A stretch of 64,000 bases of DNA from Escherichia coli. GTDB taxonomy: Bacteria > Pseudomonadota > Gammaproteobacteria > Enterobacterales > Enterobacteriaceae. The position numbers were made by a program, and so were the translations under genes. Under the pieces are notes generated by a model. That model did not search any database, had not been told where the DNA came from, and was given only the letters and a program-made list of their open reading frames with translations. The first letter of the stretch is position 1. The number at the start of each line of letters is the position of its first letter. The stretch lies in the NCBI RefSeq assembly GCF_003334355.1, contig NZ_QOWP01000009.1; one strand, 5' to 3'. Positions 19,986-54,870 of this stretch are shown piece after piece.

Positions 19986-22451
<2,466 letters not shown>

Positions 22452-22465
22452 TTTCACTAATAAAT

Positions 22466-22497
22466 AGAACGGGGCCAAAGGGTCCCGTTTTTTTCGC
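22466..22497 (+). terminator. intrinsic terminator of the glg operon (AACGGGGCCAAAGGGTCCCGTT + T7)
   Basis: Hairpin plus run of 7 T immediately after the glgP stop. Confidence 0.7.
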
Positions 22498-22566
22498 CAT
22501 CATTTCGGAAAAGTGTCCAGAAGGGGCAAGGGGACTCGGGGAGTATAATTTCGCCATTCAGAAAGA

Positions 22567-22983
22567 ATGGAAAGAATAATGCAAAACAGAAAATGGATTT
22601 TGACCTCGCTGGTAATGACTTTTTTCGGCATCCCCATTCTGGCGCAGTTTTTGGCGGCGGTTATTGCCATGCTGGGTGTCGGACTTGCCGGTATTATTGA
22701 AGTTTGTAATATCTTTATCACGCCAACAATTTACCTTCTGCTCAACGTCTTTATGCTGACGCTGGGGGCGATAATAATATTTTTCTCTGGTCGCGTGTGG
22801 GCCGGTGATAGCGCGCCAGAAAACAGAGAAATAGCCGTCTGGCGGCAATGCTTTTTTCTCTTACCCGCGCTATTAACCCTGGTTGGCTGGATAATCACGC
22901 TACATCTGGCAGATTATCAATTTCGCCAGATGGGAGCTGGTTGGTTGGCAAACCTTATGCTTCCCTGGTTGGCGTTTTTTTAG
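22567..22983 (+). CDS. hypothetical small polytopic membrane protein (138 aa, about 4 predicted TM segments)
   Basis: ORF track; strongly hydrophobic helices (ILTSLVMTFFGIPILAQFLAAVIAMLGVGLAGII...); ends at TAG 22981-22983; not recognised as a named family. Confidence 0.5.
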   Translation: MERIMQNRKWILTSLVMTFFGIPILAQFLAAVIAMLGVGLAGIIEVCNIFITPTIYLLLNVFMLTLGAIIIFFSGRVWAGDSAPENREIAVWRQCFFLLPALLTLVGWIITLHLADYQFRQMGAGWLANLMLPWLAFF

Positions 22984-23012
22984 TCTCATTAGTGGGTGGT
23001 GAGTACTGGTGG

Positions 23013-24083
23013 ATGGTCATTATTCCCGTTGGGGCGCATATCAGTTTTTCGCTGGGATACGCCTGGCCGACCAGATATCCTTTATCCGGCACGTCCGGAC
23101 TACGTTGCCGTAACTTACTCCTGTTTCTACTTCTCTTACTTGGTATTGTCGCCGGGTATCAGGCCCATTTATATAAGCAGCAAAATCCTGGTGTCGGTGT
23201 ACGCGAAAATATTGATATCTGGGCCTGGCGACCCGATAAACTCAATAATCGACTGACGCCGCTGCGTGGCAAACCGCAAATTCAGTTTAGGCAAAACTGG
23301 CCGCGAATCGATGGCGCCACGGCTGCGTACCCAATTTATGCTTCTGCATTTTATGCATTAAGTGTAATACCAGAGGATTTTCACGTTTGGGATTATCTGG
23401 AAAACTCTCGTACGCCAGAAGCATATAACAAAATCGTTAAGGGCGATGCTGATATTATTTTCGTGGCGCAACCTTCCGGTGGGCAAAAAAAACGTGCAAA
23501 GGAATCTGGTGTCACTTTGCTGTACACCCCCTTTGCCCGTGAAGCATTCGTTTTCATCGTCAATGCGGATAATCCGGTTAATTCCCTGACTGAACAACAG
23601 GTGCGTGACATTTTCAGTGGTGCAATTACCAATTGGCGTGCTGTTGGCGGTAACGATCAGGAGATCCAGACCTGGCAGCGCCCGGAAGACTCTGGCAGCC
23701 AGACAGTGATGCAATCACAGGTCATGAAAAATGTCCGCATGATCTCGCCGCAGGAAACGAAAGTGGCAAGCGTGATGGAGGGAATGATTAAAGTCGTTGC
23801 CGAATACCGTAATACAAACAACGCAATAGGCTATACCTTCCGCTATTACGCGACGCAAATGAATGCTGATAAAAATATAAAATTGCTAGCGATTAACGGT
23901 ATTACACCGACGGCGGAAAACATTCGCAACGGCAAATATGCGTACATCGTCGATGCATTTATGGTGACGAGAGAAAATACAACGTCAGAAACACAAAAAC
24001 TGGTCGAATGGTTTTTAACGCCGCAGGGGCAGAGTCTGGTAGAAGATGTGGGATATGTGCCGCTGTATCCAACAATGGAATAA
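23013..24083 (+). CDS. PstS-family (phosphate-binding-protein-like, PBP_like_2) periplasmic binding protein with N-terminal hydrophobic anchor; start uncertain (ATG 23013 or GTG 22992)
   Basis: ORF track 22848..24083 (its first ~48 codons overlap the upstream membrane ORF out of frame and are discounted). Motifs DGATAAYPIYASAFYAL, RPEDSGSQ, AIGYTFRYYA, LLAINGITPTAENIRNG parallel PstS GAGATFPAPVY / RADGSGTS / AIGYVEYAYA / PTEENF. Confidence 0.7.
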   Translation: MVIIPVGAHISFSLGYAWPTRYPLSGTSGLRCRNLLLFLLLLLGIVAGYQAHLYKQQNPGVGVRENIDIWAWRPDKLNNRLTPLRGKPQIQFRQNWPRIDGATAAYPIYASAFYALSVIPEDFHVWDYLENSRTPEAYNKIVKGDADIIFVAQPSGGQKKRAKESGVTLLYTPFAREAFVFIVNADNPVNSLTEQQVRDIFSGAITNWRAVGGNDQEIQTWQRPEDSGSQTVMQSQVMKNVRMISPQETKVASVMEGMIKVVAEYRNTNNAIGYTFRYYATQMNADKNIKLLAINGITPTAENIRNGKYAYIVDAFMVTRENTTSETQKLVEWFLTPQGQSLVEDVGYVPLYPTME

Positions 24084-24108
24084 CGCTCGAGAGAAAGGAA
24101 TCAGCGAG

Positions 24109-25101
24109 ATGAATAAATTCACCGGTGTTTTACTATTAGGCACGGCGTTACTGGCGGGATGTGTCGACCGGGAAGGGTACTATAACAGCGTTAGGGAAGA
24201 AGAGAGCCATGGACTGACGTCTCTGCGGGGGCAACCTGCATTACGTTACAGCGATGATTGGTCAAGATGGCCGAGAGTGTACGGCGCTACAGCCTTATAC
24301 CCGCTGTATGCCTCCGCGTATTATAAATTAGTACCCGAGCCAAAAGATAAGGATCGAACCTCGCTGGCCTGGCAGGCGTATGGTTTGCAGCAAACCCGAA
24401 CAGCTGAAGCCTACGATAGTCTGATTAAAGGTTCCGCGACGGTTATTTTTGTTGCACAACCGTCGGAAGGACAGAAAAAACGTGCAGAAGAAGCGGGTGT
24501 TAAACTGAAATATACCGCTTTCGCCCGCGAAGCCTTTGTCTTTATCGTTGATATTAATAACCCGGTAAATTCTCTCTCTGAGCACCAGGTTAAAGATATT
24601 TTTAGCGGCAAAACTAGCCGCTGGAATAAAGTAGGTGGTAGTGACGAACATATAAAAGTCTGGCAGCGCCCTGAAGATTCTGGAAGCCAAACGATTATGA
24701 AGGGGTTGGTTATGCAAGACACCCCAATGCTGCCAGCTAAAAAATCCACTGTGATTGATCTTATGGGCGGTTTAATTACTGAAGTTGCCGACTATCAAAA
24801 CACGCCATCTTCCATTGGGTACACCTTCCACTATTACGTCACTCGTATGAATGACAATATGCTCAAAATGCGCAAGCAGATTAAACTTTTGGCTATAAAT
24901 GGCGTTGCGCCTACCGAGGAAAATATCCGCAACGGCACTTATCCATACATTGTGGATGCCTATATGGTGACGCGTGAAAATCCCACGCCGGAAACGCAGA
25001 AATTTGTTGACTGGTTTATAAGTCAGCAGGGGCAACAGTTGGTAGAGGATGTGGGGTATGTGCCGCTGTATGAAGCATCCCCCGAATCATCAGGACAATA
25101 A
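24109..25101 (+). CDS. PstS-family binding-protein paralog, predicted lipoprotein (330 aa)
   Basis: ORF track 24046..25101; ATG at 24109 gives MNKFTGVLLLGTALLAGC (lipobox LAGC); roughly 60% identical by eye to the upstream paralog across the mature domain. Confidence 0.75.
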   Translation: MNKFTGVLLLGTALLAGCVDREGYYNSVREEESHGLTSLRGQPALRYSDDWSRWPRVYGATALYPLYASAYYKLVPEPKDKDRTSLAWQAYGLQQTRTAEAYDSLIKGSATVIFVAQPSEGQKKRAEEAGVKLKYTAFAREAFVFIVDINNPVNSLSEHQVKDIFSGKTSRWNKVGGSDEHIKVWQRPEDSGSQTIMKGLVMQDTPMLPAKKSTVIDLMGGLITEVADYQNTPSSIGYTFHYYVTRMNDNMLKMRKQIKLLAINGVAPTEENIRNGTYPYIVDAYMVTRENPTPETQKFVDWFISQQGQQLVEDVGYVPLYEASPESSGQ

Positions 25102-25388
25102 TGATGAATATAATCAGACTTTATATTTATCCGTTATTTCTCGGCTTTGTTATTGTGCCGTTGTTGGTGTGGCCGATGGTGGTTGCGCTGGCTGCTTGTA
25201 TTATCACGCTGAGTTTTCTGGGGGAAATGCTGTTCTCAATCCCGCTCATGATCAGGCGTATTTCACTTCTGCAATTACAACTTTGGTTATCGGCTGAATA
25301 TGCGCTTTTCTTCTGTGTAATGTGTTGCGTTGGTTGGCAATTTACTCGTAGAACTCAATCTGAATTGAAAAGCAGGCTCCATTGTTGA
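25101..25388 (+). CDS. hypothetical small membrane protein (95 aa); may be the N-terminal part of a gene interrupted by an in-frame stop
   Basis: ORF track; ATG overlaps the stop of the preceding gene (TAATG); hydrophobic helices. Confidence 0.4.
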   Translation: MMNIIRLYIYPLFLGFVIVPLLVWPMVVALAACIITLSFLGEMLFSIPLMIRRISLLQLQLWLSAEYALFFCVMCCVGWQFTRRTQSELKSRLHC

Positions 25389-25703
25389 TTGGTATTCGCA
25401 CCGATCTATTTATGGTTGATCCTCTGGAATATCATTTTTTACATCGCGCCAGCGAAAATTGCGTTGCTGGAAAGTATCCGCAATTTCTTTCTGCTTGTTG
25501 TCTGGCTACCCCTGAATTTTTCGCCATTTTGGCCTCAGCCGTGGACGGATTTTATCGGTCCAATAAGCGCACAGCTTGGTTTTGCGTTGGGATATTATTG
25601 CCAGTGGTGCAGCAAAAATAGATGCCAGATACGGAAGTTGAGTGAGTGGGGAACGTGCTTAAGTTTTGTTACGTTGGGTATGATGGCGTGGGCTTTGCGG
25701 TAA
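25389..25703 (+). CDS. hypothetical small membrane protein (104 aa); same frame as 25101..25388, separated from it by a single stop codon
   Basis: ORF track; both ORFs are in frame 0 and contiguous, so one stop codon splits a roughly 199-codon membrane-protein reading frame. Confidence 0.4.
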   Translation: MVFAPIYLWLILWNIIFYIAPAKIALLESIRNFFLLVVWLPLNFSPFWPQPWTDFIGPISAQLGFALGYYCQWCSKNRCQIRKLSEWGTCLSFVTLGMMAWALR

Positions 25704-25754
25704 TTCCCTGAATCAAAAAGTAGGTCAGATTGTTGACAACGTGGCGCTTTGTTC

Positions 25755-25860
25755 ATGCCTGATGCGGCGCGAACGCCTTATCAGGCCTACAAAATCATGC
25801 AAATTCAATATATTGTATAAACAACGTAGGCCAGATAAGCGTAGCGCATCTGGCAGTTTT
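25755..25860. repeat. REP/BIME-type palindromic units (GCCTGATGCGGCGCGAACGCCTTATCAGGCCTAC; GTAGGCCAGATAAGCGTAGCGCATCTGGC)
   Basis: Typical enterobacterial REP sequences read from the intergenic region downstream of convergent genes; coordinates approximate. Confidence 0.6.
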
Positions 25861-25918
25861 TTGGTTTGTCATCAGTCTCAGGTCAGATTGAAATCTGACC
25901 TGGCCACCTTACATTAAA

Positions 25919-27424
25919 TCACGACGCCAGCGACAGCTTCTGCTGCGTATACTCCACCAGCCACTGACTCACACGAGATTGTTGATCCGCATTTAGCCAC
26001 ATGCCTTGTTTTGTGCGACGCCACAGGGCGTCGTCGGCGCGGCGGACCCATTCGTGATCCACCAGGTATTTCAGCTCCGCTTCGTAGAACTCATGACCGA
26101 AATCTTCCCCGAGATCGCTTACCGTTCCCGCATTGCCGAGCAGCAGCTCGCTGTTGCTGCCGTAAGTGCGAGCGTAATGACGCGCCAGCGATTCAGTCAG
26201 GAACGGATAGCGGCGGCGCAGGCGAGCGGCATAATCGTCGCGGTCGCCTTCAATGGCGCCACCCGGTAGCACACTCTCTTTCGTCCATGCCGGGCCAATA
26301 CCCTGATAATACGGCGTTAGTTTTTCCAGCGCATGTTCCGCCAGTTTTCGGTAGGTGGTCAGCTTACCGCCGAATACCGACAGCAGCGGTGCTTTGCCAT
26401 TTTCATCATGAATATCAAGGGTGTAATCACGGGTAATAGCCTGCGGCGAGTCGGACTCATCATCACACAGCGGACGCACACCGGAGTAGGTCCAGACGAT
26501 ATCGTCACGGCTTAACTGCTTTTTAAAGTGCGTGTTATACACATTCAGCAGGTAATTGATTTCACTCTCTTCAATCTTCACCGCTTTCGGATCGCCTTTG
26601 TACTCGACATCGGTAGTGCCGATGATGGAAAACTCGTCCATCCACGGGATCACGAACACAATACGTTTATCTTCGTTTTGCAGAATGTAGGCTTGCTTCT
26701 GGGTATGCACGCGCGGCACCACAATATGGCTGCCTTTGATCAGGCGAATGCCATAAGGCGAAGGCAGATGCATCCCGTCGTCGAAGAACTGTTTCACCCA
26801 CGGGCCGGTGGCGTTAACCAAGCCGCGCGCTTGCCAGCTATATTTTTTGCCGGTATCGATATCTTCCGCTTCCACAATCCACAGGCCGTTTTCGCGGCGA
26901 GCAGAGGTGGCGCGAGTCCGAGTAAGCACTTCGCCGCCTTTACGCACCACCATCTGGGCGTTGGCGAGTACCAGACGGGCGTCGTCTACCCAACAGTCAG
27001 AATATTCGAATCCGCGCTTAATTTCCGGTTTTAACACTGAATTTGCGCCAAAACGCAAACCAGTTGATCCCGGCAAGCTGGTGCGTTTACCCAGATGATC
27101 GTACATAAACAGACCAATGCGAATCATCCACGCCGGGCGCAGATGCGGACGATGTGGCAGGCGAAAACGCATCGGGAAGGCGATATGCGGGGCCATTTTC
27201 AGCAGCACTTCACGTTCAGCCAGCGCCTCGCTGACCAGGCGGAATTCATAGTGCTCAAGGTAGCGCAGGCCACCGTGAATGAGTTTTGAACTGGCGGAAG
27301 AGGTCGCGCAAGCGAGATCCTGCGCCTCCAGCATCAGCACGGATAAACCGCGTCCAGCGGCGTCTGCCGCGATACCAGCACCATTGATGCCGCCCCCTAT
27401 CACAATCAGATCTTTGGTTTCCAT
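25919..27424 (-). CDS. glpD: aerobic sn-glycerol-3-phosphate dehydrogenase (501 aa)
   Basis: ORF track 25919..27439; ATG at 27424 gives METKDLIVIGGGINGAGIAADAAGRGLSV (FAD-binding fold). Confidence 0.97.
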   Translation of the reverse strand: METKDLIVIGGGINGAGIAADAAGRGLSVLMLEAQDLACATSSASSKLIHGGLRYLEHYEFRLVSEALAEREVLLKMAPHIAFPMRFRLPHRPHLRPAWMIRIGLFMYDHLGKRTSLPGSTGLRFGANSVLKPEIKRGFEYSDCWVDDARLVLANAQMVVRKGGEVLTRTRATSARRENGLWIVEAEDIDTGKKYSWQARGLVNATGPWVKQFFDDGMHLPSPYGIRLIKGSHIVVPRVHTQKQAYILQNEDKRIVFVIPWMDEFSIIGTTDVEYKGDPKAVKIEESEINYLLNVYNTHFKKQLSRDDIVWTYSGVRPLCDDESDSPQAITRDYTLDIHDENGKAPLLSVFGGKLTTYRKLAEHALEKLTPYYQGIGPAWTKESVLPGGAIEGDRDDYAARLRRRYPFLTESLARHYARTYGSNSELLLGNAGTVSDLGEDFGHEFYEAELKYLVDHEWVRRADDALWRRTKQGMWLNADQQSRVSQWLVEYTQQKLSLAS

Positions 27425-41452: not shown

Positions 41453-41464
41453 AGTGCGGTTGAT

Positions 41465-41485
41465 GCCGGATGCGATGCATCCGGC
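41465..41485. terminator. hairpin GCCGGATGC-GATG-CATCCGGC between convergent malQ and gntT
   Basis: Perfect inverted repeat read from the sequence. Confidence 0.5.
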
Positions 41486-41496
41486 AGTCAGTGTTA

Positions 41497-54836: not shown

Positions 54837-54840
54837 ATAA

Positions 54841-54870
54841 ACGGGAGGCGAAGGTGCCTCCCGTTTTGCT
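54841..54870. terminator. hairpin ACGGGAGGC-GAAGGT-GCCTCCCGT plus T-run between convergent envZ and pck; bidirectional terminator candidate
   Basis: Read from the sequence; approximate coordinates. Confidence 0.6.

Follow-up and report, generated by a model that had tools for sequence, protein, structure and literature searches.

In the stretch of Escherichia coli DNA analyzed here, referred to throughout as the window (64,000 nt in its entirety), the sequence next to the 3' end of glpD is a BIME-1 beside a glpD 3' hairpin, that is, an ordinary and already catalogued kind of E. coli repeat. We consider it quite probable that this region is the 3' untranslated end of glpD, which is encoded on the minus strand, and that its components are a stem-loop specific to this locus and a single canonical BIME-1; this degree of confidence applies to the explanation as a whole, that is, to the BIME-1 and the glpD 3' UTR stem-loop, including the inferred splitting of an older terminator. 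The element does not delimit the neighboring accessory genes. The kind of element is known, and only a footprint of hairpin copies that flank BIME-1 units might be new. The locus comprises the following features (window coordinates):

20004-22451, plus strand: glgP, upstream of the accessory module in the gene order.
Between glgP and the feature: accessory module of three genes, annotated in RefSeq as two "PstS family" proteins and a 200-aa hypothetical protein.
25101-25703, plus strand: last gene of the accessory module, encoding the 200-aa hypothetical membrane protein; a pseudogene in the window.
25710-25721, minus strand: T-rich tract, ACTTTTTGATTC in the glpD sense, now 158 nt from the hairpin.
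25722-25732, unstranded: AGGTCAGATTG, left member of the 11-nt direct repeat, in which the 3' arm of the hairpin recurs.
25726-25879, plus strand: complete BIME-1 unit of 154 nt, CAGATTGTTGACAA...CATCAGTCTC; homology to paralogous copies ends at its limits.
25756-25790, plus strand: REP1, Y type, an iREP ending in CTAC (25787-25790), TGCCTGATGCGGCGCGAACGCCTTATCAGGCCTAC.
25791-25825, plus strand: L linker of 35 nt, with an IHF-consensus-like site, ATTCAATATATTG, at 25803-25815.
25826-25855, plus strand: REP2, Z1 type, in the orientation opposite to REP1 and starting with GTAG (25826-25829), GTAGGCCAGATAAGCGTAGCGCATCTGGCA.
25879-25902, minus strand: perfect stem-loop with a 10-bp stem and a UUCA loop, 17 nt past the glpD stop codon; presumed old terminator stem.
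25919-27424, minus strand: glpD coding sequence, with the stop codon TGA at 25919-25921.

Beyond glpD, the window continues with glpE, glpG and glpR, and its junction is 100% identical to that of ATCC 8739 and of HS-like strains of phylogroup A. Of the three accessory-module genes, two have become pseudogenes in the window strain: compared with ATCC 8739, the first PstS-like gene (22576-24083) is frameshifted by a 1-bp deletion near 22970, and the gene for the 200-aa protein carries a G-to-A change at 25388 that converts W96 into a stop codon (25386-25388). The preliminary description of this DNA placed the repeats between the accessory module and the 3' end of glpD, and they are indeed found there, with the last module gene on one side and the glpD stop codon on the other.

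The two BIME-like REPs in opposite orientation that had been noticed there are present, at 25756-25790 and 25826-25855. The internal arms of REP1 are 85% complementary, and REP1 and REP2 are complementary to each other over two segments, 25777-25790 with 25826-25839 (93%) and 25756-25766 with 25845-25855 (91%). From their core sequences, we take REP1 to be a Y REP, with the GCGGCG-YGAA-CGCC core (GCGGCGYGAACGCC), and REP2 to be a Z1 REP, with the short core GCGCTACGC. From left to right, the unit comprises a left flank motif, the Y REP, the L linker, the Z1 REP and a right flank motif. The REP tail CTTATCAGGCCTAC, with up to two mismatches allowed, occurs twice in the 64 kb, both times within the BIME-1 (0.2 occurrences expected), and a search with this tail motif found no further REPs elsewhere in the 64 kb, so that the unit is single and non-tandem. 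The L core occurs once in the window, and the 35-nt linker can be aligned with its counterparts in the fepA-entD and yqjF-yqjG copies. The IHF site predicted from the sequence of this linker, ATTCAATATATTG, has one mismatch to the consensus WATCAANNNNTTR. The region folds with z-scores of -5.2 on the minus strand and -4.6 on the plus strand, and no shuffled sequence folded as well. In Rfam, the ES036/CssrF family matches the L linker (25791-25833) with 34.6 bits, below the gathering threshold of 37.6, and the REP-derived RNA naRNA4 gives a sub-threshold match on the Y REP. The Rfam family ES036 (CssrF sRNA) seems to be modeled on the BIME-1 linker rather than on a locus-specific sRNA.

When the segment 25662-25918 was searched against 5,426 complete E. 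coli genomes, the whole block was found at glpD in 2,130 of them; in the remaining genomes, the best match was located at fepA-entD or yqjF-yqjG and covered only 25724-25879, at ~86% identity. Every genome contains multiple places that match the BIME-1 query (at least 17-48 per genome), and the full-length unit is also present at 11 further loci in metagenome contigs. Its sequence places the 154-nt unit in the dispersed BIME-1 family. Its two REPs are imperfect palindromes of ~30-35 nt with a GTAG/CTAC foot that occur in high copy number and, in this case, between genes, in agreement with the published definition of REPs; BIME-1 is defined there by z1 and y REPs, a single copy and a long conserved L linker (PMC3333891), and the unit contains one Y and one Z1 REP, inverted, in a single 154-nt copy with the conserved L linker. 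Elements of this kind, also called RIP (repetitive IHF-binding palindromic element) or RIB, are ~140 bp long, frequently carry an IHF site in the L linker, and are present or absent depending on the isolate (PMC1187871; definition also in PMC3333891). The glpD copy shares with them the Y and inverted Z1 REPs, the single long L linker with a predicted IHF-consensus site, the occurrence as a single element of ~150 bp between convergent genes, where a transcription unit has its 3' end, and the presence or absence among strains, with nothing essential different (PMC3333891, PMC1187871). In the glpD copy, the L core (..ATATTGTA) has T in place of C, and the REP loops carry a T/A variant. No repeat feature is annotated in the glpD-yzgL gap of the RefSeq K-12 record, and a literature search for glpD with REP returned nothing relevant.

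The second component of the region is the hairpin. It had been described with a 9-bp stem near 25880-25901 but is slightly longer, extending over 25879-25902, with complementary arms of 11 nt (25879-25889 and 25892-25902) that in practice form a 10-bp stem with a 4-nt loop (-15.9 kcal/mol, z = -3.4). The window contains four perfect hairpins of at least 10 bp, compared with ~0.5 in first-order Markov simulations. The other three are at 41464-41486, 54839-54866 and 58668-58691; the first of these is REP-like (TGCCGGATGCG-A-TGCATCCGGCA), and the second resembles a bidirectional terminator (AAACGGGAGGC...GCCTCCCGTTT). The 43-nt sequence that comprises the glpD hairpin and its spacer was found in 2,376 of the 5,426 genomes, at a median of 1 place in each; being single-copy and locus-specific, the hairpin is not a dispersed repeat. 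A consensus scan of the window made no terminator call at the hairpin because the stem is followed by GAGACUGAUG, without a U tract; of the two hallmarks of an intrinsic terminator, the stable stem-loop is present in the window and the U tract is missing. The consensus scan also gave a weak promoter-like match at 25888-25915 on the plus strand, within chance expectation.

Mapped RNA ends and sequence variation both bear on the role of this hairpin. In Term-seq data from K-12 MG1655, a different strain with the same arrangement, in which termination and exonucleolytic trimming look alike, the "primary" 3' end of glpD is located at 3563562 (+), corresponding by alignment to ~25875 in the window, 4 nt past the hairpin stem, and a second glpD 3' end is at 3563685 (+), corresponding to ~25751, 5 nt past the distal Y REP (PMC7815308, supplementary file 1; judging by their position in the file, the entries apparently belong to the LB OD 0.4 sheet). 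No 3' end in this K-12 list falls at the displaced T tract (PMC7815308). Among four hairpin alleles that we collected from 17 loci, all 40 pair cells are paired in the glpD sense, including three G.U pairs, and two pairs changed on both sides; in the plus sense, 37 of the 40 are paired and three become A.C mismatches. Thus, each of the three single stem substitutions turns a pair into G.U when read in the glpD sense but into A.C when read in the opposite sense, a strand asymmetry that agrees with the mapped RNA 3' end, although, consisting of three transitions only, it would arise by chance about once in eight. The hairpin is presumed to be the present primary determinant of the glpD 3' end.

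REP stem-loops of the malE-malF type block 3'-5' exonucleases and stabilize mRNA 3' ends. The K-12 end that lies 5 nt past the distal glpD REP is at the position expected for a stalled exonuclease; unlike REP-stabilized ends, however, the primary glpD 3' end is presumably determined by the hairpin, which is specific to the locus, is not a REP and lies upstream of the BIME. The earlier remark that REP clusters often stabilize upstream mRNA stands in part, as a role at the 3' end of glpD that is supported by the K-12 Term-seq ends (PMC7815308).

That the hairpin is instead an incomplete second end of a BIME-1 or a further dispersed palindrome, or else the operator of a dimeric regulator, and not an RNA element of glpD, appears hardly likely. 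Its left arm does contain TCAGATTG, identical to the BIME-1 terminus, and a perfect 11-bp inverted repeat is of the kind bound by dimeric proteins. However, such a reading is at odds with the single-copy, locus-specific occurrence of the hairpin in E. coli, with the presence of the hairpin without BIME-1 in another Escherichia lineage (L016, see below), with the different locus-specific hairpins that flank other BIME-1 copies, with stem substitutions that keep pairing only in the glpD-sense RNA, and with the RNA 3' end mapped to the hairpin foot in K-12. FadR-like and GlpR-like operators were also considered for this palindrome; no consensus matched it, and the substitutions follow RNA pairing.

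The view that the hairpin belongs to the glpD transcript, and was once followed by a U tract, can be examined in relatives of E. coli. A scan with the GlpD C-terminus, with one genome per species, yielded four non-coli Escherichia lineages (L014-L017), of which two (L014 and L017) have a glpD 3' region like that of the window. In L016, the hairpin, GGGTCGGATTTCGATCTGACCC, is directly followed by ACTCTTT...ATTCAGGGAATTAC, without a BIME-1, and this T-rich sequence is homologous to the tract beyond the far BIME-1 end in the window. In the glpD sense, the empty allele (L016) consists of the stop codon, 17 nt, the hairpin and ACTCTTT..., and the filled allele consists of the stop codon, 17 nt, the hairpin, the 154-nt BIME-1, AATCTGACCT and then the T tract ACTTTTTGATTC; in the window, with its BIME-1, AATCTGACCT after the unit is followed by ACTTTTTGATTCAGGGAATTAC. 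Escherichia whittamii (L015:6447-6700) shows a third allelic state, in which BIME-1 is present and the 22-nt hairpin is absent (GGGCTGG joined to ACTGATGACAA). Hairpin and BIME-1 are each polymorphic among Escherichia, the BIME-1 as a whole element, which is absent from L016 and from 3,018 E. coli genomes with a different glpD 3' end (type II, see below). A reconstructed E. coli empty site, in which the hairpin is joined to ACUUUUUG, has the form of an intrinsic terminator (-12.6 kcal/mol, with 5 U in the 8 nt after the stem). In the window, with BIME-1 in between, this T tract, ACUUUUUG, lies 158 nt away, and the stem-plus-U-tract arrangement is broken.

The stem-loop located 17 nt after the glpD stop codon resembles an intrinsic terminator in having an adjoining T-rich tract in the BIME-free allele and in the reconstruction, and type II genomes have a canonical terminator at this position; in K-12, an RNA 3' end that may come from termination or from trimming lies at its foot. 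Unlike an intrinsic terminator, it has its U tract 158 nt away in the window, beyond BIME-1. Among the best 25-30 E. coli matches listed for the synthetic empty site and for the L016 junction, there was no BIME-free hairpin allele, and the empty allele of L016 could be the product of precise excision between the 11-nt repeats rather than ancestral. The 11-mer AGGTCAGATTG occurs exactly twice in the 64 kb, at 25722 and 25880, on the two sides of BIME-1, where 0.03 occurrences are expected. The last 7-8 nt of its left copy are also the first bases of the BIME-1 unit, and since 8 of its 11 bases belong to the element's own terminus, the repeat may in part reflect chance or microhomology and not a target duplication. 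BIME-1 shares with MITEs and REPINs the imperfect terminal inverted repeats (25727-25739 and 25866-25878; 85%), the potential to form a long stem-loop, and the polymorphic insertion between direct repeats. DDE transposons, however, generate target duplications of a fixed length, whereas the repeats that flank BIME-1 are 10-25 nt long and represent hairpin arms without copied loops. Terminal inverted repeats combined with a target-site duplication of fixed length, as in a MITE, were not found for BIME-1, and according to a review, REPs do not show MITE signatures (PMC3184786).

Other BIME-1 loci show a similar arrangement of unit and hairpin. At yqjF-yqjG, the element has one and the same 25-nt terminator hairpin on either side (L098:278-479, L012:1477-1678), and nearly all E. 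coli genomes have an empty site with a single hairpin at this locus (L097:240-335, L099), with ~95 filled genomes against more than 5,300 empty ones. At lpdA-yacH (L101, L220:140-260), ~470 genomes are filled, against ~4,880 that carry the empty site with one hairpin. When metagenomes were scanned with the L core, 120 loci were obtained, which were reduced to 11 distinct full-length BIME-1 sites; these, together with yqjF-yqjG and fepA-entD, make up the 13 sites that we compared. At 6 of the 13, copies of a local GC-rich terminator hairpin abut both unit ends exactly, with left-right flank alignment scores of 11-21, whereas cross-locus controls (n=156) average 5.7 and reach at most 10. The loci with direct hairpin copies abutting the unit include L109, L111, L120 and L125. 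The units at hairpin-flanked loci are 151-153 nt long, and, in all cases, the arms of the hairpin copies are near-identical and the loops differ. Several models for the loop differences were tried, namely, an inverted copy of the other strand, fold-back synthesis and mirror substitutions, and none fits all loci. A 100%-identical donor of the yqjF-yqjG BIME-1 was not found, the best paralogue being 93.5% identical.

These flanks might be explained if BIME-1 integrates at the bases of local terminator hairpins and leaves a second arm copy, without the loop, across the element, an idea that we put forward tentatively and with less than even confidence. The glpD hairpin and the 11-nt repeat would be one partly eroded example of this footprint. 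The left glpD hairpin copy would have lost 18 nt by slippage between the CAGATTG repeats in the arm and at the unit start; the modeled product of such an 18-nt slippage, AGGTCAGATTGTTGACAA, is exactly the window sequence at 25722-25739. A published description of the flanking-hairpin footprint was not found in the searchable literature, a search that extended to sources other than the older BIME papers.

With regard to glpD itself, these observations suggest a history in which the hairpin and the T tract formed the former intrinsic terminator of the gene. BIME-1 would have integrated at the base of the hairpin, duplicating part of it and parting the stem from the T tract. Today, the hairpin would act mainly as a structure that defines the 3' end and blocks exonucleases, and read-through RNA would end at, or be trimmed back to, the REP stems of BIME-1; on the DNA, the L linker may offer a binding site for IHF. 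The splitting of hairpin and T tract is suggested by their adjacency in L016, the non-random 11-nt flanking repeat and the same architecture elsewhere, whereas the role of the hairpin and BIME-1 in RNA is suggested by the K-12 3' ends, the stem substitutions, the fold energies and the type II terminator at the same position.

A different origin was implied by the preliminary description, which took the repeats to mark the indel junction of the accessory module, so that the REP cluster and hairpin would be a recombination or insertion scar of that module next to glpD. We consider this very unlikely. The repeats do sit in the variable glgP-glpD spacer, at a place where most Enterobacteriaceae lack the module, and sequences of BIME-1 length are reportedly enriched in strain-specific loops (PMC1187871). 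However, when the junction was aligned with genomes that lack the insert, the edges in three types of variants missed the REPs, and no deletion or replacement edge coincides with them. In the K-12-type deletion, which left the yzgL remnant, the first module gene matches the window up to ~22801, and the match is taken up again at ~25644-25650, within the last module gene, ~105 nt to the left of REP1; the junction is a GTG(G/T)GGG microhomology, and BIME-1 and the hairpin are both kept. In the fimbrial-operon variant, the first 68 codons of the last module gene are retained, to 25308, and the sequence rejoins at ~25744-25751 through a GCGCTTT microhomology. This edge, 5 nt from REP1, is the one that comes closest to the scar interpretation, but it lies inside the left flank of BIME-1, at the microhomology and not in the REP.

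The third variant, type II, replaces 25661-25918 as a whole: its left break, at ~25661, falls in the final 14-21 codons of the module's last gene, and homology resumes exactly at the glpD stop codon. Accordingly, the repeats are inside the variable block and not at its edge. Type II genomes (3,018 of the 5,426; L004:3880-4005) end in an unrelated, REP-free spacer of 53 nt, which contains a textbook glpD terminator, GCCCGGTTG-loop-CAACCGGGC followed by TATTTGGATT. The glpD 3' end is therefore dimorphic in E. coli, with 2,376 genomes of the hairpin type, most of them with BIME-1, against 3,018 of type II. This type I/II replacement has one end at the glpD stop codon and the other within the last module gene, and the same module family is found both with and without BIME-1. 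The junction alignments already largely refute the interpretation of the repeats as a module scar. The only indel with ends that coincide with these sequences is BIME-1 itself.

Across the family, glpD and glgP are direct convergent neighbors in most other Enterobacteriaceae, 44-250 nt apart and without a module, and the spacer between them contains a bidirectional terminator, species-specific REPs, or both. At the family level, the accessory module is an insertion, with no known boundary at the REPs. A terminator hairpin is located after glgP in the window, at 22468-22495 (AACGGGGCC-AAA-GGGTCCCGTT followed by a T run), and resembles the single bidirectional glpD-glgP terminator of Kluyvera, Klebsiella and Raoultella, which suggests that the module was inserted between that terminator and glpD. 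The glgP-glpD spacer (22452-25918; L003, L013, L095) is a hot spot that contains a 3-gene or 4-gene PstS-like module, a fimbrial operon, the yzgL remnant, or insertions of IS1 or IS4. Related PstS-like modules occupy the same site in Pseudocitrobacter, Phytobacter, Superficieibacter and Klebsiella spallanzanii. In Lelliottia sp. (L081:6450-6941) and Pseudenterobacter timonensis (L092:6450-6719), the spacer is filled by another palindromic repeat, in tandem copies of ~70 nt of the CCCTCACCC...GGGAGAGGG type, so that this convergent spacer was colonized independently by different repeat families.

Finally, it is highly improbable that the structures serve the plus strand, where they would provide the accessory module operon, and not glpD, with its 3' end or terminator: the region also lies downstream of the convergent module genes, and the plus strand folds as well as the minus strand, but no T tract follows the hairpin on the plus strand (GGCCACCTTAC), the allele variants give A.C mismatches there, the K-12 3' ends listed for 35635xx-35637xx are all on the glpD strand, and the hairpin is kept although the module is pseudogenized in the window and deleted in K-12.

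As a BIME-1 next to the 3' hairpin of glpD, the feature is present at the same place in K-12, and little is at stake for it as such. The annotation of the glpD 3' UTR gains from the recognition of the hairpin as a probable 3'-end determinant and of yzgL as a deletion remnant. The split of E. coli between two unrelated glpD 3' ends, 44% against 56%, lets a broken terminator plus BIME be compared in nature with a canonical terminator. REP-associated transposases are the proposed agent of BIME-1 spread. If the footprint reading is true, the polymorphisms at yqjF-yqjG and lpdA-yacH are natural before-and-after pairs of insertion, and if the footprint is both true and undescribed, it would provide the first sequence-level handle on how BIME-1 copies spread.
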